NCBI GenBank assembly: GCA_045650355.1
Contig: JAZRRC010000023.1
Location: forward strand, 1-39,525
Reading direction: 5' to 3'
DNA from: Candidatus Avispirillum sp.
GTDB taxonomy: Bacteria; Bacillota; Clostridia; Oscillospirales; CAG-272
Length of the DNA stretch: 39,525 nt
Positions within the stretch are counted from its first letter, which is position 1. Each line of letters begins with the position of its first letter. The notes beneath the pieces were generated by a model that saw only the letters and a list, made by a program, of their open reading frames with translations, was not told the DNA's origin and did not search any database. Below are positions 1 to 33,523 of the stretch, piece by piece. The position numbers and the translations under genes were made by a program.

Positions 1-59
1 GGGGGGGGGGTGGAGCGGGGGGGGGGGGGAAGGGAGAGGGCGGGTGGGGACAAGGGGGG
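1..59. other. poly-G / G-rich low-complexity run at the contig edge (probable sequencing or assembly artefact)
   Basis: The window opens with runs of 10-13 G broken by single bases. The flanking csaB-like frame dissolves into it. This is typical of two-colour-chemistry poly-G read tails. Confidence 0.7.
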
Positions 60-60
60 C

Positions 61-546
61 GGCTTTATCCTTGAGAAGCCTTTTTGCAAGGGTCAGGGAA
101 TCCTTGTCTCTCAGGGATATCCTGTCTGCCAGCAGCAGGGAAGAGCGGCATGCTTTTTCGTTTTTTATGGGTCCGAGACCGTTTGCATATATGAAAATTT
201 TGCATCCGAAAAGCTTTGCCATACGTAAAACAGCGCAGTAATATGCTAGGCTCCGACTGCTTGTGCTGTCCTGCAAAAGGCTTCCGCCTCCGCTTATAAA
301 AAGATCGGCTCCCGAAAATGCGCTAATAAGGGACAGCGGATTCGTGCGGCTTTTGCCTGTAAGCCTGATGCCTGAAACTGAGGGGAGGGATAAGGAGTCG
401 CGGCAAAGAACGCAGACCTCGGCTCCCGGTAGCCTTTCGGCAATGCCTGAAAGGATGGAAAACAGCACCGCCTCATCGCCTATGCTTTTGTAGCCGTAAT
501 ATCCGCCGATAACGATTTTGTGTTGCTTTTTTCGTTGTTTTTTCAT
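61..546 (-). CDS. csaB: polysaccharide pyruvyl transferase, CsaB-like (N-terminal part only; 3' end lost in the poly-G contig edge)
   Basis: My own reverse-complement translation from the ATG at 546-544 gives MKKQRKKQHKIVIGGYYGYKSIGDEAVLFSILSGIAERLPG...GADLFISGGGSLLQDSTSSRSLAYYCAVLRMAKLFGCKIFIYANGLGPIKNE... This shows the GYYG..GDEA and SGGGSLLQD.TS.RSL.YY motifs of CsaB-type enzymes. The frame stays open to the window edge, so it is missing from the ORF track. Confidence 0.75.
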
Positions 547-668
547 GTATAGCTCCTTTCATCCTTATTATTCCCTGAAAGAAGATTTTGTAATCAGGTG
601 AAAAGGAGTTGTCAAAACCATATCGGGATGGTAAAATCAATATAGCACTTTTGAAGGGAAAGACTGAG

Positions 669-1439
669 ATGGATGAAAAAATAACCGCAAAGGGGATATC
701 AAAAAATCTTTGCGCTCCTGTTGATATAGAAGTATATGATGAGCTGGACTCCACTAATACGGTTGCAAGGGAGAGACTCCTTTCGGGCTGTGCTCCGTGG
801 CATACTGTTATCGCCTGCCGTCAGACAGGGGGCGAGGGGCGTCTTGGACGAAGCTTTTTTTCTCCCTGCGATACGGGCATATACATGAGCTGTGTTCTTT
901 ATCCTGATTCAAAAGCAATCGGGCTTATAACGGGAATGGCGGCAGTCTGTGTCTGCGAAGCGCTTGAGGAGCTGGGGCTTTCTCCCTCCATCAAGTGGGT
1001 CAACGATATTTTTGTAAATGGCAAAAAGGTATGCGGAATCCTTGCAAAATCAGTATGTATCGGAGAAAGGATAGGAGTTATCCTCGGCATCGGAATCAAC
1101 GTTTATGAGCCGACGGAGGGCTTTCCCGAGGAGCTTTGCGGCATTGCGGGATTTTTGCTCAGTGAAAGAAAAGAGGGTCTTCGGGAGAAAATTTGCGCAA
1201 GGATTCTTGAGAGGCTCATGGAAAGATACGAGAGTGTGGGCGAGGACGATGCACCCTTGCAGTACCGCCTGCGCTGTATGACCGTAGGAAAAAAGGTCAC
1301 GGTAATCCCTACGGGGGTGCAGGACAAGGCGTGGGAGGCATATGCTCTTTGCGTTACGGATGAGTATCATCTCATAGTAAGAAAAGAAGACGGCGCAGAA
1401 GAAGAGCTTTCAAGCGGCGAGGTTAGTGTAAGACTGTAA
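669..1439 (+). CDS. birA: biotin--[acetyl-CoA-carboxylase] ligase, class I (no N-terminal HTH)
   Basis: GGEGRLGRSFFSP matches the biotinyl-AMP loop (GRGRxGRxW type). KWVNDIFVNGKKVCGIL matches the KWPND motif. A C-terminal SH3-like tail ends in SSGEVSVRL. The ORF-track start at 609 is TTG; the in-frame ATG at 669 (MDEKIT...) is preferred but not proven. Confidence 0.9.
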   Translation: MDEKITAKGISKNLCAPVDIEVYDELDSTNTVARERLLSGCAPWHTVIACRQTGGEGRLGRSFFSPCDTGIYMSCVLYPDSKAIGLITGMAAVCVCEALEELGLSPSIKWVNDIFVNGKKVCGILAKSVCIGERIGVILGIGINVYEPTEGFPEELCGIAGFLLSERKEGLREKICARILERLMERYESVGEDDAPLQYRLRCMTVGKKVTVIPTGVQDKAWEAYALCVTDEYHLIVRKEDGAEEELSSGEVSVRL

Positions 1440-1448
1440 TAAAAAAAG

Positions 1449-1477
1449 AAAAAACACCCTTTTGGGTGTTTTTTCTT
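1449..1477. terminator. bidirectional rho-independent terminator between convergent birA and the defence operon
   Basis: AAAAACACCC-TTTT-GGGTGTTTTT hairpin with an A-run upstream and a T-run downstream, so it reads as a terminator on both strands. Confidence 0.8.
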
Positions 1478-1478
1478 T

Positions 1479-1844
1479 TTAGTATTCCTTGAAGGTCCCG
1501 AATACAAATTTTGCGGTTTTCACGGTGGAGCCGTCGGGGGCTGTGTGCTCCTCGCTTATTCTTTTGGCACAGGCGGCAACAACGGGAATTCCCGCCTCCT
1601 TCAGCCTTGTGATAAGACGGAAGGAAAAGATGAATTCGCCCTGCACCATGGCAACGGGAGCATCGTATGACGTGATGATATCAAAATATTTCTTGACGAC
1701 CTCGTCAATTTTTTCGTTGCTCCAGAGCGGATCCACGTCGGGAAAGGGAATATCTGTTATGCTTCCGTATTCCATTGCCTTTTCAAGCTGAGCCTTGCTC
1801 CAGCTCTCCGATTTGTGGTTAGAAACGTTAATAAAGCTTCCCAT
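1479..1844 (-). CDS. small alpha/beta protein, last gene of the operon; possibly the Csx20-like type III accessory family (tentative, from memory)
   Basis: 121 aa. Its start codon abuts the stop of the upstream gene (1845/1844). N-terminal INVSNHKSESWSKAQ and central VAMVQGEFIFSF...AGIPVV suggest alternating beta-alpha elements of a Rossmann-like fold. No catalytic motif recognised. Confidence 0.7.
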   Translation of the reverse strand: MGSFINVSNHKSESWSKAQLEKAMEYGSITDIPFPDVDPLWSNEKIDEVVKKYFDIITSYDAPVAMVQGEFIFSFRLITRLKEAGIPVVAACAKRISEEHTAPDGSTVKTAKFVFGTFKEY

Positions 1845-3065
1845 TTAGCTCTCCTTAGACCTCATGTATTCTTCATAAAGCTTTATGCGCTCGTCTTTTT
1901 CAAGGGATACGCACTTCAGAATAAGCTCTCTTTGCTCTTCTGTTCTTTTGATAAATATAAGCTTTCCCGCATCGTAATGGTTGAGGCAGAGCACGTCATC
2001 GTTGGCGATTCGGTTGCAGGTGCCCTTTGAGGCGGACTCATTATCAAATACTCCGAGCATCATTCCTATCTGCTTATCGGAAACTACCCATGAATAGTTA
2101 CCGTCGCGCTCTCTCTTTGAAAATCCGTCATTTTTGTTAACAGCGTTTCCGCTTTTTATAACAATGCTTTCGTTGAAATGGGGCAGGTTTATTGAGTTTT
2201 TTGTCTCTTCTCTGAGACAAAGGCTTAAAATAAGATTTCGGGGAGCATCGTAATGGGAGGAATTGAACATTTCGGTGAGCCTTTTGATGGGCGCGCCGTT
2301 GTCTATTCTGTATGCCTCGAAGATATACTCATCCCCTGCACGGAATACTGCGATATAGTAGGGGAAATAAATGGTGCTGATTTCATTTTCCGCACGTATA
2401 GACATTTTTTTATAGCCCTGAGGGAGACCCAGCTCAAGGCGGTCCTTGTTGATATACTCGGAGTTGTTTATCATATTTTCAAGGTCTGATGCTGTGCGAA
2501 AGGCTGCTTTTCCCTCGGGAAGCCATACGGCATACTCGCTTTTGTTTATATTTTCGCTTCTGATGCAGTAAAGGTCAAGCTCATAGAAATCCACAGGCAT
2601 AAGTCTGACGGAGAAAACGTCAAAGAGCTTTTTCTCCATCTGAGTTCTTTCAAGCACCTTCTTGTTCAGCTTGATGGATTCAACTGCGGGCAGCTTGGGA
2701 ATAATGCCGTCAGGTGTCTCGATAAAATGGCCTGAATCACGAAGGTCAATAAAAAAGCTCTCTGCGATTTCATATGCATCTGCATCGATTCCGAGAAGGG
2801 AGAAAAGCTCGTCCTTATTCTTTATATAGATCTTATGGGCGGCTCTTTCCATATCATCCGTATATCCGCATATAAGCTTATCCATATATTTTTCGATAAT
2901 ATGGTATGTATCCTCACAGGCGGATGCCTCTATGTTCACGTCTATCTCGTAAACGGGATGAATAACCTTGAAAAGGCGAAAAAGTGTGGCGTTGTCGCTT
3001 CTTTTTTGACGGTATAGCCTGTTTGCCATTGTGGACTGATTGATTTTATGCGTCTTTTTATTCAT
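1845..3065 (-). CDS. hypothetical protein (406 aa), operon member with no recognisable motifs
   Basis: Long ORF co-directional with its neighbours, 32 nt downstream of the helicase gene and directly abutting the 121-aa gene. Composition is protein-like. I cannot assign a family by eye. Confidence 0.75.
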   Translation of the reverse strand: MNKKTHKINQSTMANRLYRQKRSDNATLFRLFKVIHPVYEIDVNIEASACEDTYHIIEKYMDKLICGYTDDMERAAHKIYIKNKDELFSLLGIDADAYEIAESFFIDLRDSGHFIETPDGIIPKLPAVESIKLNKKVLERTQMEKKLFDVFSVRLMPVDFYELDLYCIRSENINKSEYAVWLPEGKAAFRTASDLENMINNSEYINKDRLELGLPQGYKKMSIRAENEISTIYFPYYIAVFRAGDEYIFEAYRIDNGAPIKRLTEMFNSSHYDAPRNLILSLCLREETKNSINLPHFNESIVIKSGNAVNKNDGFSKRERDGNYSWVVSDKQIGMMLGVFDNESASKGTCNRIANDDVLCLNHYDAGKLIFIKRTEEQRELILKCVSLEKDERIKLYEEYMRSKES

Positions 3066-3097
3066 AACGACAAGGTCCTTTCTTCTTTATACGGTGC

Positions 3098-6000
3098 TCA
3101 GACGGAAATATATCCGCCGTTGCTCTTGCAGTAGTTGATGAGATCTCTGTAGAAGGCATCGGTGCTTTTGCGGTTGTGAACGGCACGTCGTCCGGATGAG
3201 GTGAGGGTCTCGGAATCGCCTACCATGACAAGGAGAGATTTTGCTCTTGTCATCATAACGTTTATGCGGCGGATTTCGTCCAGAAATCCTATTTTGTGGC
3301 GCGGATTACTTCTGACAAAGGAGTAGAAGATGATCTGATTGTCTCTTCCCTGGAAGGAGTCGAGGGTGTTTACCGTGAGGTGGGGAAGGATATCGTCAGG
3401 CTGCTTATCCTTGTAATATTTGTGAAGGCTCTTTTTGATGTAGTGCTCGATTACAGGCACCTGGTTTTTATATGCAGTAATTATACCGATATCGTAATCA
3501 CCCTTTTCGTTCTTAAGGGATTTTACAGAGCCTGTAAAGTTGCCGCTTTCAATGTCGAAAACAACACGTGCGATGTGATCTGCAAGTATTTTTGCTTCCA
3601 GCAGATTTGTCAGATTCTTTGTATCCTCACTGTCGCTTGCGGGCATGTACATATCGTCATCCTCGTCCTCTGTCTGAGCCACGCCGTCGGGATCGTATTC
3701 GTACTTGTCGGGTGAATTTGCGGTATCGATAAAATACATGGGCTTTGTAAATCCGCCGATGTGGAGAGTGCGCTCTTCTGCAGACACACCGCTTTTGTAC
3801 TTATTGTCATAGAAGTATCGGGATATAAATTCTGCAATAATGGGATGCATTCTGTACTGAGTATCAAGCATGACCTTGTTTTGGTCAAATGCGGGGTCAA
3901 GGAAGAGCTTTTCGAAAAGGCTGACAGAGTAAGTCTGCATAAGCTCGTTTACGCTTGTCACGGTATTGCTTTCCTCGAAATCAAAAAGATCATTGCTTTT
4001 AACGTAGGAGCAGAACTCATCTTTGCCTGTGGGAGCAAGCTGAATATGGTCGCCTATGAGAATGATCTTTTTTGCCTTAACAAGGGGAACGAGAAGGTCG
4101 TAGGCTGTTATCTGACCTGCCTCGTCGATGATCGCAACGTCATATTCCGCATCGGAGAATGCAGGGTCCATATCTGTTCCGATGCAGGTGGCACCGATGA
4201 TCTTAACGCACTGAACCAGAGGGTCCTCAAGGATTCTCTGGTCATCCGCAAGCTCCTCGTGCCATTCATCGAGAATGCTCTTGCAGAGGATCTTTGATCT
4301 TTCGGCATTTTTCTTCTTTTCCCGGAGCACGTCAACAAATCGCTGATAGTCGCCGGGGGAGTCGGGATCAACGGAGGGGGATTTTGAAATTTCTATAAAG
4401 ATTTCATAGGCGGAGTTTTTGCAAGGTGTGCCGAGAGCGCTCTTTGCTTTTGCATCGAGGGACTCTTTTTTGGTATCGGAATCCGAGGAGGATGAAAGGG
4501 CGATGCCGTAAAGCTCGCCGAGAGCACCCTTGCATCTTCCGGGGGCTGAGGTAAGGCAGAAATTAAGGGCAGTGATGCGCTCGAAAAATTCGCCCATACG
4601 GGATACAACGGCATCTGCATACATCTCGGATACCTCGATATATTCATGCTTCAGAATATCCTCAAGCCTTAAAATTATATCGTCCGTAAGTGCGGATGCT
4701 CCTGCAAGGCTTTCCTTTAAGGCCTTTGATCTTTTAGGACCGAGAAGGAGGGAGAAGAATTTACCTCCGAGTGTATATAAAAGCTTCTGACGTGCCTCTG
4801 AATATACGTCGCCCTGCTTTTCAAAGAAGGTGACAAGCTCTCCTATGGGTGCTGTTTCTTCCCCTGCTGCGGTGCACAAATCGATGATAGCATCCTCTGC
4901 TGCAAGTCGGTCGTCTCTTGCCTTTTCGCTTCGCTTTTTGATATCGTTCTCAATGGAAAGCGCAAGGGGGCGGCGGGTCTGCCCTCTGACCTCTTCAAGA
5001 ACCTTTTCGATACGTCCGAGGCGGAGGCACAGCATTTTTCTCGTCTTAGCCTCATCGTGGTAAAGGTCCATGCACTTTTCAATAACGTTGTCAACGGGAA
5101 GATTGCTCTTTGAGGAGATAAGAACCTTCTTGCCGTCTGCAATGAATTTCTTAACTATTTCTGTGATAATGGTGGTTTTTCCCGTGCCGGGAGGGCCCTG
5201 CACAAGAAGGAAGTCCTCTGTATTGAGGGCCTTTTCAATGGCGTCGATCTGAGACTCGTTCACCTGAACAGCATCCTCTTCGTTTTCGTCGTAGGGGGTA
5301 TATTTGGTTCTTATAACGAGGGGGCGAAGCTTCTTTCCGACTATAATATCGAGAAGGCTTTTGTTCGTGCAGGTGTTGTTTTTAAGGGAGGACAGGGCTT
5401 TTGCTTTGAGTCTGTACTCAACGTTTATGCTTTCCGTTATCTCGCCGCTTTGAGCAAGTCTTGTATAGATTTCGTTCATAGCATTGAAACGGATGTAGAG
5501 CCAGGGCTCACGGAAGTCCGTAACGATTCCGTTTACAGGTCTTGCACCGTCGTTTACGCTTACGCTGACCTGAGAGTTTTTCTTGGGATTACCTGTGACA
5601 GAGGTGGTTCTGAATCTGTAGATTACTCCGTCATCTGCTGCGTTTCGTGCTGAATCGATGGAATCGTATTCTGCAGAGAAAAGCATTCTTTCGGAGAATG
5701 CCTTCTCGCATTCGATGATCTCGCTGTAGGTTTCGATGAAATCAACGTAGCTGTTGATTTCGTCGTTTTCCTCGGGCTCTTTTTCTTCAACGATTTCTGC
5801 CTTGCGGGGCTGTCCGTCGAAGACGCTGTCGATAAATTCGAAGAAGGCAGAGGCGCCGCTCCTGTATACGTTGGGCTGAGTGTATCCCTTGAGGCAGGCG
5901 TATTGAGAGGGAAGTCCGCACACCTTCACAGCCTTGATGGCAGCAGTCAGCGTTCTGCTCTGGTACATAGTGTGGCAGCCCGTGATTTTCATGCTGATAA

Positions 6001-6247
6001 TGGGAGGCGAAGGGTTGTCCGGGTCTGAGAGATCGTAAAACGGCCATGCGTTGAACTCATGAGATGATGTGAACAGCTTATAATAAGCCTTGAGCTCGCC
6101 GTCTTTGTCGGTTTTAAATTCCTTGATGAAGCTAAAGCCGTCGCGGGCATTGTATTCTCTTTTGAAGGCATGGAAATCATCTGCGTTGTAGAAGAGGAGT
6201 ATGAAGGGACTGGAGGCGCTGATAGTATAGGTATAGGTTTTGCTCAT
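3098..6247 (-). CDS. SF1B helicase, Upf1/DNA2-like (AAA_11/AAA_12 type) with a roughly 340-aa unassigned N-terminal region
   Basis: Motif I LVQGPPGTGKTTII; Ia VLISSKSNLPVDNV; II VAIIDEAGQI; III ILIGDHIQLAPT; IV LDTQYRMHPIIAEF; V VNTLDSFQGRDNQIIFYSFVRSN; VI RRINVMMTRAKSLLVMVGD. About 350 aa, largely helical-looking, lie between motifs I and II. Confidence 0.93.
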   Translation of the reverse strand: MSKTYTYTISASSPFILLFYNADDFHAFKREYNARDGFSFIKEFKTDKDGELKAYYKLFTSSHEFNAWPFYDLSDPDNPSPPIISMKITGCHTMYQSRTLTAAIKAVKVCGLPSQYACLKGYTQPNVYRSGASAFFEFIDSVFDGQPRKAEIVEEKEPEENDEINSYVDFIETYSEIIECEKAFSERMLFSAEYDSIDSARNAADDGVIYRFRTTSVTGNPKKNSQVSVSVNDGARPVNGIVTDFREPWLYIRFNAMNEIYTRLAQSGEITESINVEYRLKAKALSSLKNNTCTNKSLLDIIVGKKLRPLVIRTKYTPYDENEEDAVQVNESQIDAIEKALNTEDFLLVQGPPGTGKTTIITEIVKKFIADGKKVLISSKSNLPVDNVIEKCMDLYHDEAKTRKMLCLRLGRIEKVLEEVRGQTRRPLALSIENDIKKRSEKARDDRLAAEDAIIDLCTAAGEETAPIGELVTFFEKQGDVYSEARQKLLYTLGGKFFSLLLGPKRSKALKESLAGASALTDDIILRLEDILKHEYIEVSEMYADAVVSRMGEFFERITALNFCLTSAPGRCKGALGELYGIALSSSSDSDTKKESLDAKAKSALGTPCKNSAYEIFIEISKSPSVDPDSPGDYQRFVDVLREKKKNAERSKILCKSILDEWHEELADDQRILEDPLVQCVKIIGATCIGTDMDPAFSDAEYDVAIIDEAGQITAYDLLVPLVKAKKIILIGDHIQLAPTGKDEFCSYVKSNDLFDFEESNTVTSVNELMQTYSVSLFEKLFLDPAFDQNKVMLDTQYRMHPIIAEFISRYFYDNKYKSGVSAEERTLHIGGFTKPMYFIDTANSPDKYEYDPDGVAQTEDEDDDMYMPASDSEDTKNLTNLLEAKILADHIARVVFDIESGNFTGSVKSLKNEKGDYDIGIITAYKNQVPVIEHYIKKSLHKYYKDKQPDDILPHLTVNTLDSFQGRDNQIIFYSFVRSNPRHKIGFLDEIRRINVMMTRAKSLLVMVGDSETLTSSGRRAVHNRKSTDAFYRDLINYCKSNGGYISV

Positions 6248-6278
6248 TTTATGGCCATTCCTTTCTTTTCAAACGGGC

Positions 6279-7043
6279 TTATACGTTACAGCTTATTAAA
6301 AAGGGGGCAAAGCAGGGCGCCTTGTCTTCAAAAATCAATTGAGGGAAGCTTGAAAATACGCTTCCGGGAAGGAAAAACTGAGTCTGTGCCGAAGCACTGA
6401 ATCCCAGTCTGAAAAATGAGAGAGGAAGCTTTGCGCTTTCTCCGTCTGTTTTCATCGGTGAAAGAAGCAGACAGGATGAGCTTTTCCCCGGGTTCAATTC
6501 CTTTACTGATTCAACCGTAAAGGAGTGACCGAGGATTTCTATCTCATCGCCTGCGAAGAGGGGAAGAGCGCCGACCTTGGCAACGTAAAACTCAAGGAGT
6601 GCGCCCTTTTTTATCTTTGTTTTGACGGGCACGACTGAGGAAGGCTCGATGCTCCTTGAAAAGGGAGAGGAAAATCCGTTCAAGGTAGAGTAGATGTGAG
6701 AATCCTTTACCTTCACCGCTCCGTCGCACAAAAGCTGAGTCAGGCTTTCGGGAGAGGAGAGGCTGTCGAGAAGGTCCTTTTCGATATATTCAGCCTTCTT
6801 GCAAACCTTGAATATTCTGTATTCCTCCTTGGAGGAAAGTCTTACGGTATCAAAGCTGAAGGGCTTGTATACGAATCCCTTGGCAAAGCAGTCGCTGAGG
6901 AGGAGCTTCTCTGTCTTGAAATCTGCAAGAGAAGAAAGAGCTGCAAAGATATCGGCAGAGGAGGGGATGCTGTCGAAAATATATTCAGCTGCAGCCCGTA
7001 TGGAAACGGAATATGACGTCATAGCTGCTTCAGATGCTTTCAA
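6279..7043 (-). CDS. hypothetical protein (254 aa), translationally coupled to the mCpol-like gene
   Basis: The TTG start at 7043 sits 9 nt after GGAGG and overlaps the upstream stop by 14 nt. An alternative ATG lies at 7022. No motifs recognised. Confidence 0.65.
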   Translation of the reverse strand: MKASEAAMTSYSVSIRAAAEYIFDSIPSSADIFAALSSLADFKTEKLLLSDCFAKGFVYKPFSFDTVRLSSKEEYRIFKVCKKAEYIEKDLLDSLSSPESLTQLLCDGAVKVKDSHIYSTLNGFSSPFSRSIEPSSVVPVKTKIKKGALLEFYVAKVGALPLFAGDEIEILGHSFTVESVKELNPGKSSSCLLLSPMKTDGESAKLPLSFFRLGFSASAQTQFFLPGSVFSSFPQLIFEDKAPCFAPFLISCNV

Positions 7044-8217
7044 TCAGGCTCTCCTCCTTTCTTTTTCTGATAATCTTGCTTTTGGAAAGGCGCAGTATTC
7101 TGCTTTTAAGCTCTCCTACGTTTGAGAGGATAACAAGACGCTGGTTTTTGTCAAGACCGTCAAGGATATTATCCATATCGTCCTTTGTATATTCGGCAAG
7201 GGCACAAAGCTGCTCCCAGGAGATTATCCTTTCGCCTATGGCAACGGCATTTTTCGTGCGTGTTGACTTTACGCATTCAAGCTGCTTTTCCGCAAGGTCG
7301 GAATAGTAGAAAAGAGGCACGCTGCCGAGGTCGTTTCTGATAACTGCAAGACCTGCGGAAATACCGAAAATAGAGCGGTACAGAGACAGCTCCTCCGTAC
7401 GTGAGATGCCGTCCTTTATCTTTTTGTAAAGAGAGCTGACGGTCAGAGGGTAATTGCAGCTTTTCAAAAGAACGAAAATATCGTCACCGCCTACGAATAT
7501 GGGGAAGATTCCGTCTGTTGATTCAACGGCTCCCTCGATAACACGGGCAAGGGCTGCGCTTGTTTGCTTTTTCTTGTCAAGCTGACCGATTCCCGCAAAG
7601 AAATCGCCCAGATTGTCAAGGTCAAGCTTGAGGGATGCGAAAAAGGATTTGTCGCTGTCGCTGCCGTGGGAGCTTCTTTTTTCGAATGCGGAGAAGGAAA
7701 AGTCCTCATCTCTGTATTCGGAAAAGGGAAAGCCTATAAGATTTTTGCAAAGGTATTTGTTTTTGTTAATAAGGATTCGCATATAGCTTGATGCATCCTC
7801 GTCCTTTGAGAGGGGATATTTATCGGTAACGCAGACCTCCGCCACGGCATAATAGACCTGAAGGCGTCCGTCAGTTTCCGTATAAATTATTCTTTGCAGC
7901 CTGTCGGCCTCCGCAAAAAGCTCCTTTTCCTTGACCTTCTTCGATACTGCCAGCATAAGCTTGCCGCTGGAGAGCGTCAGTACACGGGGGCAGCTCTTTT
8001 TTGGAAGCAGGGCAGTGAGCTTTTTCAGAATAAGCTCTGTTGCGAAAATAACGTACTGAGAGCGTGTCTGTATCTGCTCGGGCGTAGATTTCGTATCTAC
8101 AGAGCCGAAGATAAAGGACTGAATGCCAGAGAATTCAAAGCTTATAACGCGAAGCTTTTCCCGCGCCTTGAAATCTGCGGGAATCTCGCTGAAGGAAATA
8201 TAATGCTTCTGTTTCAT
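7030..8217 (-). CDS. minimal Cas10-like polymerase/cyclase (mCpol-like): two palm modules, no HD, Zn-finger or C-terminal helical domain
   Basis: Palm1-like: EFSGIQSFIF...TRSQYVIFATELI...LTLSSGKLMLAV (compare Csm1 DxSGIQxFIY...LRGRSFYL...GGGHFYLL). Palm2-like: LKLDLDNLGDFF (D199-x-D201), then 44 aa later IFVGGDDIFVLL (GGDD at residues 243-246, nt 7480-7491, checked by back-translation). Only 395 aa. Confidence 0.85.
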   Translation of the reverse strand: MKQKHYISFSEIPADFKAREKLRVISFEFSGIQSFIFGSVDTKSTPEQIQTRSQYVIFATELILKKLTALLPKKSCPRVLTLSSGKLMLAVSKKVKEKELFAEADRLQRIIYTETDGRLQVYYAVAEVCVTDKYPLSKDEDASSYMRILINKNKYLCKNLIGFPFSEYRDEDFSFSAFEKRSSHGSDSDKSFFASLKLDLDNLGDFFAGIGQLDKKKQTSAALARVIEGAVESTDGIFPIFVGGDDIFVLLKSCNYPLTVSSLYKKIKDGISRTEELSLYRSIFGISAGLAVIRNDLGSVPLFYYSDLAEKQLECVKSTRTKNAVAIGERIISWEQLCALAEYTKDDMDNILDGLDKNQRLVILSNVGELKSRILRLSKSKIIRKRKEESLIESI

Positions 8218-8232
8218 TTTTATACTTTTTAA

Positions 8233-9825
8233 TTATTCCTTTGCCACTGTCAGCAGCACCTCGGAGAAGCGGTTGAGCATATAGCAAAGATGCTTGTAAT
8301 TCCAGTCGGCAGAGCTGTCTCCGCCGCTTGCGTGGTTTGTTGAGTTACGCTGCTTTTTCAAAAGCTGATATACCAGTAATATTTCACGAAGTATTGACTT
8401 ATCCTTGATACAGGAGGATACTCTGCCGGAGTCCTTCTCGTAATGCCAAAGAAGCTTTGCCGCTGCCTTTGTGACGTCGGTTATCTGCTTTTTGTAGCCG
8501 GGGATGGACTTCATATCAAACATATTGAAAGAGAAGCGCTCGGAATCGGGGATGAACAGCTGCTCGTAGCTCGGTGTGTGTGACATGAGCTTGCTTTTGA
8601 AATCGCTTATAACAGTGCCGTACGAGGGATTCTCGCCGCTGAAGGGGAGGTAGTTGACAAACCAGTGATAGCCTGTCTTGAGCCTTCCCGACTGAACGTC
8701 TCTTTTGAAATTCATAAGATCTCGGGGGACGGGATGGGCGACTTTCAGAGTATCAACGAATTCGTTGAATTCAGAAAGCTCCTCCTCGGTAGGAGCATAG
8801 ATGCCGGAGCTCACAAAATACTCGGGCATTTCCTCGCTGCAGAAGGTGAGAGCCTGCTGAATAAATTCCTTCTGAACGCACCAGCGGATGATCTCGGGAA
8901 GAGTTCCTCCCAAAAGATCTCTCATTCCGTCGAGAATGTCGCTGATAACGAAGCTGAAAAGCTGGCTGTATGTATCGTTATGGGTAATGTCATCGCTTTT
9001 TTTAACGTAGTCGTAAAGCTTTGCCAGAAGAGCTGATTTGTTGCTCATGATATAGCTTGTGCGACAAAGCTGGAGGTTGTTTGAGAAGGTTTCAAGGGAG
9101 CCGAGAAGAGACTGTATTTCCTCTCCCGCAGGAGCAAAATACCGCTTCAGTCCGCCGATTCTTCCGTAGTTGATATACTCGTTGATTCCCGAGATAAGAT
9201 CGTAGGACTCGAAAAGGGAGGCCATGTTCTGGATGGGAACAACTCCGTTGACCTTGGTATCAAAGTTCATTGTCATAATAAGAGGAACCTTGACGCCTCT
9301 GATCTTCATAAGGTTTGCAATGGAGAGGATCATGAAGGCGATATAGCGCTGACCGCCGTTGAAATCGATGAAAAGCTGAACGTCATTGCCGTCGGAAGTG
9401 ATCTCGTTTGCCGCATCGATAACAGATTCCGAAACCTGAAAATCGTTGGTAAGGTCGGGGATGGGCACCTCTATATATTCAATGGGAGTGATGGAATAGC
9501 ACCGGTCTGCAGAGCGGGCATATTTGTCGATAAGGCGACGGAAAAGCTCAAGGTGTGAAAGAGCAGTGCCGCTCTCAACCTCTGCCTCTGCAGGTATGGG
9601 GGCATCCTCGCGGATGTTGGTTTTAACGAAATTTGAGCAAATAAGAACTATCTTATCAAGTCTTTCGCCCTTTGCACGGAGCATGTCGATGATGTATTTT
9701 GCAGGTGCTTCATTGGTCATGGAGCCTTCAAAAAAGACAGTGCTTCCATCTATCTCAGCGCAGTATTTATTCAGTTGTGCATAGGGGCTGAGGGGGCTCA
9801 GACAAAGAAGAAGAATGTTTTTCAT
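8233..9825 (-). CDS. CARF-HEPN protein, Csx1/TM1812 (DxTHG-family)-like predicted cOA-activated RNase
   Basis: N-terminal MKNILLLCLSPLSP...KIVLICS is a Rossmann-like CARF start as in TM1812/Csx1. DFNGGQRYIAF sits where the DxTHGxR motif lies. The C-terminal RNSTNH (R493-H498, nt 8332-8349, checked) is an Rx4-6H HEPN motif. An AGGAG RBS lies 6 nt before the ATG. Confidence 0.8.
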   Translation of the reverse strand: MKNILLLCLSPLSPYAQLNKYCAEIDGSTVFFEGSMTNEAPAKYIIDMLRAKGERLDKIVLICSNFVKTNIREDAPIPAEAEVESGTALSHLELFRRLIDKYARSADRCYSITPIEYIEVPIPDLTNDFQVSESVIDAANEITSDGNDVQLFIDFNGGQRYIAFMILSIANLMKIRGVKVPLIMTMNFDTKVNGVVPIQNMASLFESYDLISGINEYINYGRIGGLKRYFAPAGEEIQSLLGSLETFSNNLQLCRTSYIMSNKSALLAKLYDYVKKSDDITHNDTYSQLFSFVISDILDGMRDLLGGTLPEIIRWCVQKEFIQQALTFCSEEMPEYFVSSGIYAPTEEELSEFNEFVDTLKVAHPVPRDLMNFKRDVQSGRLKTGYHWFVNYLPFSGENPSYGTVISDFKSKLMSHTPSYEQLFIPDSERFSFNMFDMKSIPGYKKQITDVTKAAAKLLWHYEKDSGRVSSCIKDKSILREILLVYQLLKKQRNSTNHASGGDSSADWNYKHLCYMLNRFSEVLLTVAKE

Positions 9826-9855
9826 AGGACGCTCCTTTTGTAAAGGTAATATTTT

Positions 9856-9883
9856 ATTATAACAGCAAATTCCCGTTTGTCAA
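9856..9883 (-). promoter_or_regulatory. sigma-A type promoter of the six-gene operon
   Basis: The minus strand reads TTGACA-N16-TATAAT with TG at the extended -10 position (TGTTATAAT). It lies about 30 nt upstream of the CARF-HEPN start codon. Confidence 0.7.
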
Positions 9884-10127
9884 TACATATTTTGAAATTA
9901 ATTGAAATAATTTGGAGAAAATTATAATTTCACCGTCTCTGCCGAGGCGGGAAAAGCATTGGCTCATAAAAAAATAGATGGTAAAGCCGACAAACTTTTT
10001 TAAATTATTTTATACAACATAAACATATCGATAATAGGCATATCGAGTGAAAAAAGATGGAAAATGTCATCTGAAAACACATAACTTTGTATATAGTATA
10101 AAATTATGGAAAGTTTCGAAAAAAATG

Positions 10128-10156
10128 TTGCGATATGAAACAATATATGATATAAT
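10128..10156 (+). promoter_or_regulatory. sigma-A type promoter driving the leader/sRNA upstream of rex
   Basis: TTGCGA-N17-TATAAT with extended -10 (TGATATAAT). The predicted TSS is around 10161-10164. Confidence 0.65.
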
Positions 10157-10160
10157 GGTG

Positions 10161-10431
10161 AAAACTCATAATGTAAGGTCGGAGCCTTGCGGGCAAAGGG
10201 CCCGTGGCGTATGCCCTCAGCCCCGTTTTCGGCTTTCGTCCAGTGAGAAAAAATGTGTCGGCGACACAAATTTTACAAAACGTTTTTGGTATATCGAAAT
10301 GGGTACAGAATATCAGGGCGTTGGCAGCAGAGAGTCTCTTTGCAGCGCAATGCTTAATGCGAAAAATGCTGAAACTGAATACAGCAAAAACTCCCCGTAT
10401 ATAGTTGTGCGACAAGTATATACGGGATTTT
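10161..10431 (+). ncRNA. unassigned roughly 270-nt transcript (structured leader or sRNA) bounded by the promoter and a terminator-like hairpin
   Basis: No credible ORF or RBS. Several local hairpins are present, e.g. TGTGTC-GGC-GACACA and GCAGAGA-GTC-TCTTTGC. It ends in the 10394-10431 hairpin. I could not match it to any riboswitch or RNA family by eye. Confidence 0.3.
10394..10431 (+). terminator. intrinsic terminator/attenuator-like hairpin upstream of rex
   Basis: CCCGTATATA / TATATACGGG is a perfect 10-bp stem, extended by TTG/CAA, with loop TGCGA, followed by ATTTTG. Confidence 0.5.
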
Positions 10432-10468
10432 GCGGCGCATAATCGCTACTACCATTATCGATACGGAT

Positions 10469-10513
10469 GTGACCGATATTTCGCCTTGGGGCAAATATCC
10501 GAATAAGGGTCAC
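10469..10513 (+). promoter_or_regulatory. second extended hairpin just upstream of the rex RBS
   Basis: GTGACC-GATATTT(c)GCC-TTGG-GGCAAATATC-(8 nt)-GGTCAC gives two stacked helices with no U-run after them. The rex RBS GGGAGAGG follows at 10527-10534. Confidence 0.35.
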
Positions 10514-10538
10514 GGCTAATCTACACTCGGGAGAGGCT

Positions 10539-11183
10539 ATGGAAAAAAGCAAGATCACGAAGGCGGTCCTCGGCAGGCTGCCTCGATACCTGACCTTTCT
10601 CAAGGGCTTGTCCGAGGGAGAGGAACAGTACATCTCCGCAACGAGGATAGCGAAGGAGCTTTCCTTGGGAGAGGTTCAGGTCAGAAAGGACCTGGCCGTT
10701 GTTTGCGGAAAGGGAAAGCCGAAGCTCGGTTACCGTATTCACGAGCTTGTAAAGAGCATAGAGGCGTGCCTCGGCAGCACAAGATCCACTGTTGCGGTGC
10801 TTGTGGGAGCGGGAAAGCTCGGCAGGGCGCTTCTTGAATACGACGGATTTGAAAAATTCGGTGTGCATATTGCGGCGGCATTTGACTGCAACGAGATCCC
10901 CCTGAGGCTCAGCAGCGGTCTTGAGGTGCTGCCAATGGCACAGTTCGGAGAGTTCTGCAAAAGCAATGACGTTAAGATCGGCATCATAACGGTTGGCGAG
11001 GGCTCAGCCCAGACTGTCTGCGATGAGATGATAGCAAACGGCATTTGCGCTGTCTGGAACTTTGCTCCCTGCAAGCTGGACGTTCCGGCGGGAGTTGTAT
11101 TCCTGCAGGAAAACCTTGCGCTTTCACTTGCATACCTGAACAATAAGCTTTTGGAACAGAATCGAAAGGAGAATGACATATGA
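10539..11183 (+). CDS. rex: redox-sensing transcriptional repressor Rex
   Basis: N-terminal winged helix (LGRLPRYLTFLKGL...ISATRIAKEL) plus a Rossmann NADH site VLVGAGKLGRALL. Family length is typical (214 aa). Confidence 0.93.
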   Translation: MEKSKITKAVLGRLPRYLTFLKGLSEGEEQYISATRIAKELSLGEVQVRKDLAVVCGKGKPKLGYRIHELVKSIEACLGSTRSTVAVLVGAGKLGRALLEYDGFEKFGVHIAAAFDCNEIPLRLSSGLEVLPMAQFGEFCKSNDVKIGIITVGEGSAQTVCDEMIANGICAVWNFAPCKLDVPAGVVFLQENLALSLAYLNNKLLEQNRKENDI

Positions 11184-30217: not shown

Positions 30218-30229
30218 GAGGTGACGGGA

Positions 30230-31693
30230 ATGGAATATAAATTAGGTAAATATCAGAACATAAACCAGGAAACACGCTGGGCTACAATGGATGAAATAAA
30301 GCGCTCCTCCACCTACGTTGACCTCAGCGCCGACGTTTATCCCGGAGCAGGCCTTCCCGTTATTTCAGACGGACACGAGGCATACGTGGATTCCTCCGAT
30401 ACTCACAGCCTTATTTTCGGTGCAACAGGCTCAAAAAAGACAAGACTTTTCTGTATGCCCATGCTCAACTATTTCATAAAGGCAGGAGAATCCTTTATCG
30501 TAACCGACCCCAAGGGCGAGCTTTATGCAAGAACTGCGGGAATGGCAAATGCCAATGATTATAACGTTGTAGTTCTTAATTTCCGTGATATCGGAAGGGG
30601 AAATATGTGGAATCCTCTCTCCTTGCCTTATGAGCTGTATCAGGAGGGAAGGACTGATGAAGCTGTTGCAATGCTCAATGATTTTGTAGCAACGATCTCA
30701 GCTCCTCAGTTTGAGCATACAGTAGATACCTTCTGGCCCGAAATGGCATCCTCCCTTGCTATTGCAAATCTTTTGTTAATGATGGAAACAGCAACAAAGG
30801 AAGAGGCAAACGTTGGTACTCTTGCAATGCTTTGCACCTCATATTCTGCGGAAAAGCTTGAAAAGCTTTGTGCAAATATGAGAAGCGATACTATTGCCGG
30901 TCTCAATTATAAAAACGTATTTTCCAGTGCCGAAAAGACAAAGCAGAGCATTATGGTTTCTCTTTTCGGTATGGTTCGTATATTCAATAACCAGAAAAAT
31001 CTGACAAAGATGCTTTCGGGAAATAATATCGATATATCCTCCTTCGGCAGAAAGAAGACAGCGGTATATCTTATCATTCCCGATGAAAAGAGCACATATC
31101 ACTTCCTTATCACAACTTTTATAAAGCAGGCATACGAGATCCTTATTTCCGAGGCACAGAAGGAAGCAAACCGTCAGCTCCCCGTAAGAGTAAATTTTGT
31201 TCTTGATGAGTTTTGTAATATCCCCCGCATTCCCGATATGCCCTCCATGATCTCAGCTGCACGAAGCAGAAATATGCGCTATTACCTTGTAGCGCAGAGC
31301 TTGCATCAGCTGAAGGGCAGATACGGTGAGGATGCAGATACAATCAAGGGTAACTGCGATAACTGGGTATTCCTCACATCAAAGGAGCTTGACCTTCTTG
31401 AGGAGATAAGCAGCCTTTGCGGCTCATATTATACTCCCTACGGAAACCTTCGCAGACTTATTTCCGTTTCAGAGCTTCAGCGCCTTGATAAATCAAAGGG
31501 TGAGGCACTTATTATGCACTGCCGTCAGTATCCGATCATTTCCGAGATCGCAGATATAGACGATTATGAAATGTTCAAGGGATACAGTGCCCCCGATCTT
31601 GTTGAATATGAAATGCCCGAGGCTAAAATGTTTGATCTTGATCAGTTCTATAAGGACGTGATCAACGAAATTCGCCCCTTGCCCTTCTCATAA
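30230..31693 (+). CDS. VirD4/TraG/TraD-family (type IV coupling protein-like) ATPase lacking N-terminal TM helices
   Basis: TRWATMDEI...SLIFGATGSKKTRLF...TDPKGELY...VNFVLDEFCNIPRIPDMPSMISAARSRNMRYYLVAQSLHQLKGRYGED matches the T4CP core. No hydrophobic N-terminus. ATG at 30230 follows GAGAGGTGA. Confidence 0.8.
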   Translation: MEYKLGKYQNINQETRWATMDEIKRSSTYVDLSADVYPGAGLPVISDGHEAYVDSSDTHSLIFGATGSKKTRLFCMPMLNYFIKAGESFIVTDPKGELYARTAGMANANDYNVVVLNFRDIGRGNMWNPLSLPYELYQEGRTDEAVAMLNDFVATISAPQFEHTVDTFWPEMASSLAIANLLLMMETATKEEANVGTLAMLCTSYSAEKLEKLCANMRSDTIAGLNYKNVFSSAEKTKQSIMVSLFGMVRIFNNQKNLTKMLSGNNIDISSFGRKKTAVYLIIPDEKSTYHFLITTFIKQAYEILISEAQKEANRQLPVRVNFVLDEFCNIPRIPDMPSMISAARSRNMRYYLVAQSLHQLKGRYGEDADTIKGNCDNWVFLTSKELDLLEEISSLCGSYYTPYGNLRRLISVSELQRLDKSKGEALIMHCRQYPIISEIADIDDYEMFKGYSAPDLVEYEMPEAKMFDLDQFYKDVINEIRPLPFS

Positions 31694-32827: not shown

Positions 32828-33523
32828 ATGGCTCGAATCAATAAAAGCGCATTGACAAAAACAGAAATCGTTCAGGAAGCTTGCAAGCAGTTTCTTGAAA
32901 AGGGATATTCCAATACAACGATATCGGCAATTTCGAAGGAGCTTGGAATGAGCCCCGGAAATCTGACCTTCCATTATCCGACGAAGGACCATTTGCTTGC
33001 AGAGCTGGTTGAAATGCTTTGCATCCATCAGTGGAATCTGCTGGAAAAGGAAGTGGACGACGGCTACAGCTCGGTAATGGCAATCTGCCTTGAGCTTGCG
33101 TATATGACAAGCACCTGCGAGGATGATGAGATCATCAAGGATTTCTTCCTCTCAGCCTATCGCAGTCCCATCTGTCTTGAAATCATCAGAAAAAATGACT
33201 GTCAGCGAGCTAAGGAGATATTTAAGGCCCACCGTCCCGAATGGACAGACGAGCAGTTTGCAGAGGCTGAGATACTTGTGTCAGGCGTAGAGTATGCTAC
33301 GCTGATGACAGCGGGAGAGCCCGTGTCTCTCGAAACCAGAATCAGCGGTGCAATGCAGAACATACTCGGTATATACGGTATTCCGCCTGAGATACGCAGC
33401 ATGAAGCTGAAAAAGGTATTTGAAACAGACTACAGAGCAGACGGAAAGAAGATCCTCTTGGATTTTAAGGAATACGTAAGAAAAGCAAACGAACAGGCTT
33501 TTCGTGAATTATTGAAAAGATAA
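32828..33523 (+). CDS. TetR/AcrR-family transcriptional regulator
   Basis: N-terminal HTH: TKTEIVQEACKQFLEKGYSNTTISAISKELGMSPGNLTFHYPTKDHLL. Confidence 0.92.
   Translation: MARINKSALTKTEIVQEACKQFLEKGYSNTTISAISKELGMSPGNLTFHYPTKDHLLAELVEMLCIHQWNLLEKEVDDGYSSVMAICLELAYMTSTCEDDEIIKDFFLSAYRSPICLEIIRKNDCQRAKEIFKAHRPEWTDEQFAEAEILVSGVEYATLMTAGEPVSLETRISGAMQNILGIYGIPPEIRSMKLKKVFETDYRADGKKILLDFKEYVRKANEQAFRELLKR

Follow-up and report, generated by a model that had tools for sequence, protein, structure and literature searches.

In canonical type III CRISPR-Cas systems, Cas10 and Csm4 are placed at the 5′ handle of the CRISPR RNA (crRNA), where they read target binding. To our knowledge, Cas10 is activated in every studied case by target RNA that pairs with a crRNA on a Cas7 filament. 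Here, we describe a rare operon of six co-directional open reading frames (ORFs) on the minus strand of a 39.5-kb stretch of DNA from a gut Clostridia bacterium (Candidatus Avispirillum sp., contig JAZRRC010000023.1, positions 1–39,525; the whole stretch is referred to as the window). The predicted products are, in the order of transcription, a CARF-HEPN effector RNase (p1), a reduced Cas10 (p2), a Csm4-like protein (p3), an Upf1-like helicase (p4), a system-specific protein (p5), and a Csx20 ring nuclease (p6). We consider it fairly probable that these genes form a CRISPR array-independent anti-phage signaling system that arose by reduction of a compact CRISPR-Cas system of type III-A. For a more specific proposal, we see the arguments as evenly balanced: the Cas10–Csm4 module may have been exapted into a guide-free innate sensor, in which the helicase and p5 replace the crRNA–Cas7 filament as the allosteric trigger of cyclic oligoadenylate (cOA) synthesis. 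Such an exaptation would represent a previously unrecognized mode of Cas10 activation, and the system would form a new class among the type III derivatives that lack arrays.

Among the closest described systems, the Panoptes cyclase mCpol/OptS is a homo-oligomeric protomer with a single palm, in which the GGDEF motif is largely absent, and is encoded in a two-gene operon together with a membrane effector (PMC12657218). Panoptes signals constitutively as a guard (PMC12657218), and its effectors are either OptE with two transmembrane segments or, in type II, a CARF protein with a transmembrane region. Mokosh is defined by a PLD-family nuclease (MkoB, which is fused in MkoC) and, in type I, by a Ser/Thr kinase domain in MkoA; the ATP site of its helicase is required, and sensing of phage RNA was proposed by the authors (bioRxiv 10.1101/2022.05.11.491447). 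HRAMP/ARAMP loci are defined by diverged Cas5 and Cas7 proteins with HNH or PD-(D/E)xK nucleases and do not contain Cas10 (PMC8730458).

The core of the operon described here starts with the cyclase p2. This protein matches the Pfam family PF22335 (Cas10-Cmr2_palm2; E value of 2.8e-11) and, in two stretches that cover both palms, the Csm1 model TIGR02578 (3.5e-21; at 75.6 bits, this match stays under the curated cut-off of 170 bits). A profile of the p2 family aligned with the Csm1 structures 6ifu and 6nud, again over both palms (3e-13). p2 consists only of palm 1 and palm 2, followed by a short C-terminal tail. The HD domain and the Cys4 zinc finger are absent, as is most of the C-terminal helical domain. 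The cyclase motifs, in turn, are intact (EFSGIQSFIF, K197xD199xD201NLG, and G243GDD246), and (E/D)FSGIQSFIF, KxDxDNLG, and GGDDIF are invariant among 13 members of the p2 family. As judged by these profiles and motifs, p2 is a reduced two-palm Cas10.

The gene encoding p3 overlaps the p2 gene by 14 nucleotides. Direct matches of p3 to Csm4 are weak but exclusive (PADLOC, 3.7e-4; TIGR01903, 2.8e-3), and 6 of 17 members of the p3 family independently match four different Csm4 models, with a best E value of 5.5e-7. We also made use of a genuine type III-A system from a metagenome-assembled genome of Izemoplasmatales (locus L020). Its Csm4 retrieved p3 orthologs at ∼1e-17 from a local set of ORFs. 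When the p3 family was compared with this Csm4 in hhalign, both aligned over 224 columns, which is nearly the whole protein (97% probability, E value of 9.7e-11); the negative controls Csm2, Csm3, Csm5, Cas6, and Cas10 reached ≤0.4%. Against PDB sequences, the p3 family profile gave no meaningful match at E values up to 10, and a match of p3 to bS18m was dismissed as a chance match of 38 residues. On the basis of these profile comparisons, p3 is assigned as a diverged Csm4/Cas5 partner of Cas10.

The large protein p4 matches the Pfam helicase domains AAA_11 (2.5e-43) and AAA_12 (1.6e-47), the MkoA profile of PADLOC (8e-111), and TIGR00376, which represents the IGHMBP2 family (2.3e-72). Its solved relatives in the PDB are IGHMBP2 (4e-33) and Upf1 (7e-32), and also include Sen1, DNA2, ZNFX1, and Aquarius. 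Walker A (G351PPGTGKT358), motif II (D708EAGQ), and the remaining helicase motifs are intact, and all catalytic motifs are invariant in 14 orthologs. The N-terminal region of p4 (∼residues 1–325) is family-specific and did not match any of the L020 Cas proteins in hhalign.

Within the four-gene core (p2–p5), p5 is the only protein without a known fold. It found no match in Pfam, PADLOC, or NCBIfam, and the p5 family profile found none among PDB sequences at E values up to 10. An AlphaFold2 model of p5 reached a predicted local distance difference test score (pLDDT) of 76.5 and a predicted template modeling score of 0.69. Recurring Foldseek matches of this model were only local and concerned winged-helix domains of ∼70 residues; residues ∼80–125 of the model form a probable winged-helix module. 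When 1.84 billion representative proteins were scanned exhaustively with HMMER, only 43 relatives of p5 were retrieved, 28 of them at E values ≤1e-30. Fusion to Sel1/TPR repeats at the C terminus is frequent among the orthologs; p5 proteins without a repeat tail are encoded in the window and in loci L001, L002, and L007. In hhalign, p5 and the N-terminal region of the helicase stayed at ≤1.2% against the L020 Cas proteins (for p5, Csm5, Csm2, Csm3, and Csm4 among them), save for a match between p5 and Cas6. There, residues 26–71 of p5, an N-terminal β-hairpin plus helix, aligned non-significantly with the C-terminal half of Cas6 (17.5%, 46 columns). This weak match could hint at an RRM/RAMP remnant and is treated as a lead only.

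Repeat proteins are also encoded in the surroundings of the core at several loci. In L037, a 722-residue protein with nine LRR-like repeats of 23 codons follows p5. Giant Sel1 proteins are found near the core of L005 (1185 residues) and L012 (1452 residues, with 22 Sel1 repeats), and a Sel1 protein of 656 residues lies beside the core of L003. The core of L005 is in addition surrounded by genes for Ser/Thr kinases, PP2C, and VWA proteins.

p2-type Cas10 proteins form 13 clusters among 5.8 billion proteins. We gathered 20 loci by starting from these clusters, by scanning genomes with an alignment, and by running a further, independent scan with p5 as the anchor. A single-sequence scan of genome contigs with p2 returned nothing, whereas the alignment-based scan succeeded. 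The order Cas10, Csm4-like protein, helicase, and p5 is kept in all 19 loci that are long enough to show it; the contig of the twentieth (L009) stops at the Cas10 gene. In our ORF calls, the sizes of the core proteins range from 389 to 440 amino acids for the Cas10-like protein, 223–292 for the Csm4-like protein, 937–1146 for the helicase, and 382–693 for p5. Carriers belong to Lachnospiraceae, Oscillospiraceae, Acutalibacteraceae, Clostridiaceae, Faecousia, and unclassified Clostridiales, and include Muriventricola aceti H5_61 (locus L016), which is a cultured carrier and has the operon within ∼163.6–184.6 kb of NZ_JAOQKF010000003.1.

The genes for Cas10 and the Csm4-like protein overlap in 13 of 15 loci, and those for the helicase and p5 in 11 of 15. 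As a descriptive measure, the pairwise divergence of the four core proteins is correlated (r = 0.81–0.92), and the value peaks for the helicase–p5 pair; for the Csx1-type effector, the correlation is less tight (r = 0.64–0.78). The catalytic motifs of cyclase, helicase, and HEPN domain are invariant over relatives with 22–62% identity, a pattern that speaks for purifying selection acting on three enzyme activities. Moreover, the core block is found in differing chromosomal neighborhoods, indicating a mobile cassette. The conservation of this block, which the initial annotation of the window had left to be examined in other genomes, is well beyond chance: the core order recurs in 19 of 19 informative loci, with no adjacent arrays or Cas7.

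These comparative data bear on the possibility that the operon is a decaying, non-functional type III remnant that happens to lie beside an unrelated helicase gene. Such a remnant would fit the loss of Cas7, Cas11, Cas6, Cas1/2, and the array, as well as Cas10 and Csm4 proteins that are shorter than their canonical counterparts. It is opposed by the four-gene order with intact ORFs in 19 of 20 loci (all that are long enough), by the invariant catalytic motifs at 22–62% identity, by the overlap of the genes and the co-divergence of their products, and by the perfect promoter and the terminator of the operon. We give this explanation next to no credence and regard it as effectively refuted by the comparative data.

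The same data bear on the role of p5. Repeat modules that vary in this way are typically seen in protein-ligand sensors, such as those of the STAND/Avs type. The frequent Sel1/TPR fusions of p5 orthologs, the LRR-like protein behind p5 in L037, and the giant Sel1 proteins in L005 and L012 favor an explanation in which p5 and its repeat-protein module sense a phage protein in the manner of a TPR/LRR receptor, with the helicase as a co-effector or as a processivity or ATP-gating factor. However, the full system is kept where p5 has no repeat tail, as in the window, L001, L002, and L007, and the tightest co-divergence together with the gene overlap suggests that helicase and p5 are one functional unit and not a sensor apart from an effector. 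We regard a sensor of this kind, with the helicase in a secondary role, as unlikely.

No CRISPR-like array and no interspaced or tandem repeats resembling one were found in the 39.5-kb window, and no CRISPR array was detected within ±10 kb of any of the 20 core loci. The same scan was positive at the canonical Cas10 loci (∼800 amino acids) L029, L030, L031, and L036, as well as at L020. Searches with Pfam, PADLOC, and NCBIfam revealed neither Cas7 (Csm3/Csm5, Cmr4/6) nor Cas11 in the six operon proteins, and Csm2, Csm3, Csm5, and Cas6 of L020 gave no phmmer match in any of the core loci at E values up to 1. The initial annotation had considered that homologous loci might always lie beside an array and Cas7/Cas5 genes; the 20 loci speak against this, with no array within ±10 kb and no Cas7. 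In L001, the six-gene module contains no non-coding gap of more than ∼50 nucleotides, which excludes a cis-encoded guide RNA there.

An element on the plus strand of the window lies in the 655 bp that separate rex from the operon promoter. It consists of a promoter (TTGCGA, 17-nucleotide spacer, TG-TATAAT) and a GC-rich, structured stretch of ∼100 nucleotides that ends in a hairpin and a T-run. This element may represent a small RNA or else serve rex as a leader/attenuator. We rejected it as a guide RNA of the system on the basis of a fold z-score of only −2.1, no Rfam family, and no counterpart in related loci. The repeats of L037 were rejected as a CRISPR array, as they are in-frame, 23-codon LRR-like protein repeats.

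The system might nevertheless still be RNA-guided. In this case, Cas10–Csm4 would borrow crRNAs in trans or use another small RNA, and the helicase would replace the Cas7 filament in presenting the guide or scanning targets. Many type III loci (III-B, III-C, III-E, III-F, and III-G) are without arrays of their own, and it is assumed that their crRNAs are recruited in trans (PMC12669027). Csm4, which holds the crRNA 5′ handle together with Cas10, was specifically retained in the core, and the array scan covered only ±10 kb per locus. On the other hand, the core loci are devoid of Cas7, Cas11, and Cas6, which in all known complexes of type III hold and process the guide; none of 20 loci has an array within 10 kb, the non-coding space in L001 never exceeds ∼50 nucleotides, and the candidate small RNA upstream of the operon is conserved in no related locus. 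RNA guidance of this kind appears distinctly improbable to us.

The remaining two proteins of the operon belong to the downstream part of a cOA pathway. p1 matches the PADLOC profiles CARF2--CARF_HEPN (4.2e-52) and Csx1/Csm6 (1.3e-27) and displays the features of the Csx1/Csm6 family, an N-terminal CARF domain and a C-terminal HEPN domain with an R-x4-6-H motif. This motif reads R493-N-S-T-N-H498 in p1, and Arg-493, Asn-494, and His-498 are conserved without exception among 9 orthologs with identities as low as 22%. Among PDB sequences, p1 found no match. p6 aligns over its full length with the Csx20 profile of PADLOC (1.4e-29), and its orthologs carry the Pfam domain PF27247. A representative Csx20 was experimentally shown to cleave cyclic tetra-adenylate (cA4), and the Csx20 family was found only together with cA4-dependent effectors (bioRxiv 10.1101/2024.09.24.614671). 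By its profile matches, p6 is a predicted Csx20 that would degrade cA4 and thereby reset the signal.

The effector layer varies among the loci. We found Csx1-type CARF-HEPN proteins (adjacent or a few kb off), a Csm6 that is transcribed divergently, a stand-alone CARF protein together with a ∼350-amino acid protein, a CARF-HEPN-Csx20 fusion, and a free Csx20; in L006, L009, and L012, no CARF partner was found. Such shuffled cOA-pathway parts in most loci are expected around an active cOA synthase. The stand-alone CARF protein (∼205–235 amino acids; up to 1e-73 for CARF2--CARF of PADLOC) is encoded next to a protein of ∼350–420 amino acids that gave no matches, and the pair is located between the CARF-HEPN and Cas10 genes. 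This conserved pair is absent from the window operon and may act either as a second effector under the control of cOA or as a regulator of the Crn-like kind. In the subclade of L007, L008, and L010, two genes downstream of the core, a 548-residue protein with a metallo-β-lactamase fold is encoded, which shows a weak match to Anti-Pycsar Apyc1-like proteins and an LTD domain.

The presence of a ring nuclease also bears on a guard mechanism as in Panoptes, in which cOA would be made constitutively and immunity would fire once the signal has been depleted by a sponge or ring nuclease of a phage. In Panoptes types I and II, constitutive signaling by Cas10-related cyclases outside CRISPR loci has been demonstrated (PMC12657218, PMC13577387). 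The window cyclase, however, is not an mCpol, and CARF-HEPN RNases of the Csx1/Csm6 type are turned on by cOA in characterized type III members (PMC8730458). A host-encoded cA4 ring nuclease would, moreover, keep destroying a "keep-off" signal, and a guard has no need for a 1049-residue helicase, Csm4, or p5. We consider this mechanism very improbable for the operon.

Taken together, these assignments change the initial annotation in part. Its reading of p1 as a CARF-HEPN effector stands (4e-52 in PADLOC), with the RNSTNH motif from Arg-493 to His-498 legible in the translation, as does that of p4 as a large superfamily 1B (SF1B) helicase (∼1e-45 for AAA_11/AAA_12). For the 395-residue p2, both Cas10 palms and the intact GGDD were recovered (PF22335 and TIGR02578), but the label "mCpol-like" does not hold for a protein with two palms in one chain, GGDD, and a Csm4 partner. 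Among three proteins regarded as orphans, the 406-residue p5 remains one, whereas the 254-residue p3 is Csm4/Cas5 (97% in hhalign) and the 121-residue p6 is Csx20 (1.4e-29 in PADLOC). The annotation had also stated that the window is free of a CRISPR array and of Cas7, Cas5, Cas6, Cas11, Cas1, and Cas2. An array, Cas7, and Cas11 were indeed not found, but Cas5 is present in the form of the Csm4 homolog p3.

From these data, we propose the following mechanism. p2 and p3 would form a cyclase heterodimer, as suggested by homology and by the overlap of their genes. The backbone of Cas7, Cas11, and crRNA, which normally reports target-RNA binding to Cas10, would be swapped for the 5′–3′ helicase p4 and the co-evolving p5 with its putative winged-helix module, often fused to or trailed by Sel1, TPR, or LRR repeats. 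When the helicase–p5 unit meets an infection-associated ligand, the cyclase would be switched on; this is the least certain step. The likeliest ligand would be foreign single-stranded RNA bound by the helicase, or an intermediate of replication or transcription, and a phage protein that is read by the repeat module may contribute to triggering. Cas10 would then synthesize cOA, probably cA4, as the Csx1-type CARF domain and the cA4-specific Csx20 suggest. Binding of this signal to the CARF-HEPN protein p1 would lead to non-specific RNA degradation and to growth arrest or abortive infection, until Csx20 (p6) degrades the signal and the cell is reset.

In this mechanism, helicase and p5 would take over the reading of the target, which we consider the most economical hypothesis, and would bind foreign nucleic acid in the way proposed for the homologous helicase of Mokosh. 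The initial annotation had named the helicase and the orphans as candidates for the sensor or regulator; for the helicase and the remaining orphan p5, a sensor role is a reasonable proposal. Upf1-like helicases already act in defense, for example in Mokosh, which counts in favor of the proposed system. The domain assignments of all six proteins, the fold of p5 apart, are likewise predictions supported by profile searches.

Several points weigh against the proposed system. Defense, cOA synthesis, and complex formation are predictions from sequence and comparative genomics, and the activating ligand and the roles of helicase and p5 are deduced from genomic linkage only. p6 falls below the curated 70-bit cut-off of the NCBIfam model CAS_Csx20 (7e-10, 39.4 bits). 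The AlphaFold2 model of p3, which was built from a 4-sequence alignment, is poor (pLDDT of 43); in Foldseek, its top ranks were mostly RAMP proteins (Cas5d, Cas6, Csm3, and Csm4), none of them significant (best E value of 0.36), and we did not use this model as evidence. p5 had no global Foldseek match (best E values of 0.31 in the PDB and 0.14 in BFVD). The array scan covered ±10 kb per locus, the divergence correlations were not corrected for shared phylogeny, and the window operon is located amid housekeeping genes with no recognizable defense island. [quoted passage not shown] The earlier proposal of an undescribed CRISPR-less cOA defense system with a helicase is supported by comparative genomics.

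If the proposal is true, a sensor other than the crRNA guide apparatus is able to operate the switch of Cas10. A Cas10–Csm4 pair without a crRNA filament would surprise a specialist; the system allows the switching of Cas10 to be tested in a new setting and would offer a tractable model for the allosteric control of Cas10–Csm4. The system would join two themes of defense, sensing by Upf1-like helicases (as proposed for Mokosh) and cOA signaling, and touches on the evolutionary interconversion between CRISPR effector modules and modules of innate abortive infection. A cOA generator gated by a helicase could also serve as a guide-free reporter of nucleic acids or infection. Because M. aceti H5_61 exists as a cultured carrier, the hypothesis is directly testable.

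The ORFs of the window match exactly the six co-directional minus-strand genes of the initial annotation in position and length, and its single consensus promoter was confirmed as well; the flanking genes named there as birA and rex are a biotin-ligase-family gene and Rex. From p1 to p6, the genes are spaced by 15, −14, 31, 32, and 0 nucleotides. The promoter lies ∼30 nucleotides upstream of the p1 start codon, and its full match to the consensus is unique within positions 1300–10600, the region that was scanned. The operon ends at an intrinsic terminator that it has in common with the convergent biotin-ligase-family gene; the hairpin can be read on both strands because it is palindromic. The coordinates of all features are listed in Table 1.

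Outside the operon, the remaining large ORFs of the window are housekeeping and redox genes, encoding [FeFe]-hydrogenase-like, malate/lactate dehydrogenase, fumarase, and heterodisulfide-reductase-like proteins and a SpoIIE-family phosphatase, together with a TraG/VirD4 coupling protein. A Pfam scan revealed no cas genes among the genes that flank the operon. The fumarase shares 88–89% identity over its best segment with those in Oscillospiraceae and Ruminococcus metagenome-assembled genomes from gut and rumen, which places the host among the anaerobic gut Clostridia. The Rfam and tRNA scans of the window and the PHROG scan of its unannotated ORFs were empty. The GC content is ∼46% over the operon and ∼50% in the neighborhood at 13–29 kb. 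It falls to 39–44% at 29–33 kb, where the TraG/VirD4-type coupling protein and a TetR regulator are encoded. The ORFs around these two genes, including those at 33.7–38.9 kb, gave no Pfam or PHROG match, and the AT skew is strongly positive at 35–39 kb. The region at 29–39 kb may be the remnant of a conjugative element. The contig ends, a poly-G run and a (TCCCGA)x5 repeat, are probably sequencing or assembly artifacts.

Table 1. Features of the window and of related loci, with positions given for each locus
Locus	Feature	Position	Strand	Basis or description
Window	Operon promoter	9856–9883	−	TTGACA, 16-nucleotide spacer, TG-extended TATAAT; 12/12 consensus
Window	p1, Csx1-type CARF-HEPN effector RNase (predicted), 530 amino acids	8233–9825	−	PADLOC profiles and HEPN motif
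Window	p2, reduced Cas10/Csm1 (predicted), 395 amino acids	7030–8217	−	Pfam, TIGR02578, family profile against Csm1 structures
Window	p3, diverged, shortened Csm4 of the Cas5 family (predicted), 254 amino acids, TTG start	6279–7043	−	Csm4 hidden Markov models, hhalign
Window	p4, Upf1-like SF1B helicase (predicted), 1049 amino acids	3098–6247	−	Pfam, PADLOC, TIGR00376, PDB relatives
Window	p5, system-specific protein without known fold, 406 amino acids	1845–3065	−	No profile match; local winged helix
Window	p6, Csx20 ring nuclease (predicted), 121 amino acids	1479–1844	−	PADLOC Csx20
Window	Bidirectional intrinsic terminator	1443–1480	Both	17-bp stem, 4-nucleotide loop, flanking A-runs/T-runs
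Window	Biotin-ligase-family gene	609–1439		Pfam (BPL_LplA_LipB)
Window	Rex	10539–11183		Pfam
Window	Element in the gap between operon promoter and rex	10128–10280	+	Promoter, structured stretch, hairpin, and T-run
Window	TraG/VirD4-type coupling protein	30221–31693		
Window	TetR regulator	32828–33523		
Window	Poly-G run	within 1–49		
Window	(TCCCGA)x5	within 39494–39525		
L013	Stand-alone CARF pair	8307–9985		
L014	Stand-alone CARF pair	8263–9992		
L015	Stand-alone CARF pair	8257–9983		
L016	Stand-alone CARF pair	8200–9972		
L021	Stand-alone CARF pair	4443–6325		
L037	LRR-like repeat protein, 722 amino acids	11250–13418		
L005	Sel1 protein, 1185 amino acids	6425–9982		
L012	Sel1 protein, 1452 amino acids	5624–9982		
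L003	Sel1 protein, 656 amino acids	16516–18486		
L007/L008/L010	Metallo-β-lactamase-fold protein, 548 amino acids	17200–18846		
L020	Compact type III-A system	135–6682		
L019	Locus with the gene-size pattern of L020	566–6767		Gene sizes only

The nearest CRISPR-linked relatives of p2 and p3 that we found are the Cas10 and Csm4 of L020. The type III-A system at this locus is complete and very compact; it consists of an HD-less Cas10 of 435 residues, Csm2, Csm3, Csm4, Csm5, Cas6, Cas1, and an array. A second Izemoplasmatales metagenome-assembled genome (L019), which counts with L020 as nearest to the window in this respect, shows the same pattern of gene sizes with a 424-residue Cas10; this likeness is based on gene sizes only. 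The simplest reading of the sequence relationships would be reductive evolution from a compact III-A system, in which the genes for backbone, processing, and adaptation and the array were lost and the helicase–p5 pair was gained.

In common with type III-A systems, the window operon has a Cas10/Csm1 with both palms and GGDD, a Csm4/Cas5 partner encoded immediately downstream, and the same downstream cOA logic with a CARF-HEPN effector and Csx20. In contrast to type III-A, it possesses no Csm2/Cas11, no Csm3/Csm5 (Cas7), no Cas6, no Cas1/2, and no array; its Cas10 is trimmed to 395 amino acids and its Csm4 to ∼250, and the Upf1-like helicase and p5 stand in place of the backbone genes. The window system thus falls outside the type III definition with respect to the Cas7/Cas11 backbone and the array, whereas its Cas10 and Csm4 are clearly of that lineage.

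With Panoptes, the operon shares a Cas10-related cyclase outside CRISPR that is paired with a signal-binding effector (PMC12657218, PMC13577387). Unlike the Panoptes cyclase, p2 is a two-palm pseudo-dimer with an invariant GGDD and a Csm4 partner, and the system comprises six genes, including a helicase, p5, a soluble HEPN RNase (as judged by profile), and a ring nuclease. We rejected membership in mCpol/Panoptes because of the two palms, GGDD, the six-gene operon, and the CARF-HEPN effector. The likeness to Mokosh lies in the Upf1-like SF1B helicase of COG1112, with the strong match of p4 to MkoA. Membership in Mokosh was rejected because neither Pfam nor PADLOC detected a PLD or Pkinase match in the six proteins; furthermore, the predicted output of the window system is a cyclic-nucleotide signal, whereas Mokosh acts directly by a nuclease.

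HRAMP/ARAMP loci and the I-E-STAND systems of Streptomyces are, like the window operon, reduced class 1 effector modules without arrays or adaptation genes and are thought to serve in non-adaptive defense (PMC8730458, PMC12669027). Membership in HRAMP/ARAMP was rejected, as Cas10 is present and no match to Cas7, HNH, or PD-(D/E)xK was found. HRAMP/ARAMP and I-E-STAND keep Cas5 and Cas7 together with nucleases or a STAND NTPase and are without Cas10 and cOA signaling, whereas the window system has kept Cas10, Cas5, and the whole cOA pathway and has lost Cas7. The operon would fill a missing class of array-less CRISPR derivatives; in those known so far, Cas5 and Cas7 are retained and Cas10 is lost. 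Overall, the operon is more aptly seen as a derivative of type III-A systems than as an mCpol system. In this reduced form, the Cas10–Csm4 core, the effector, and the ring nuclease are kept, and the backbone of Cas7, Cas11, and crRNA is swapped for a helicase and p5.

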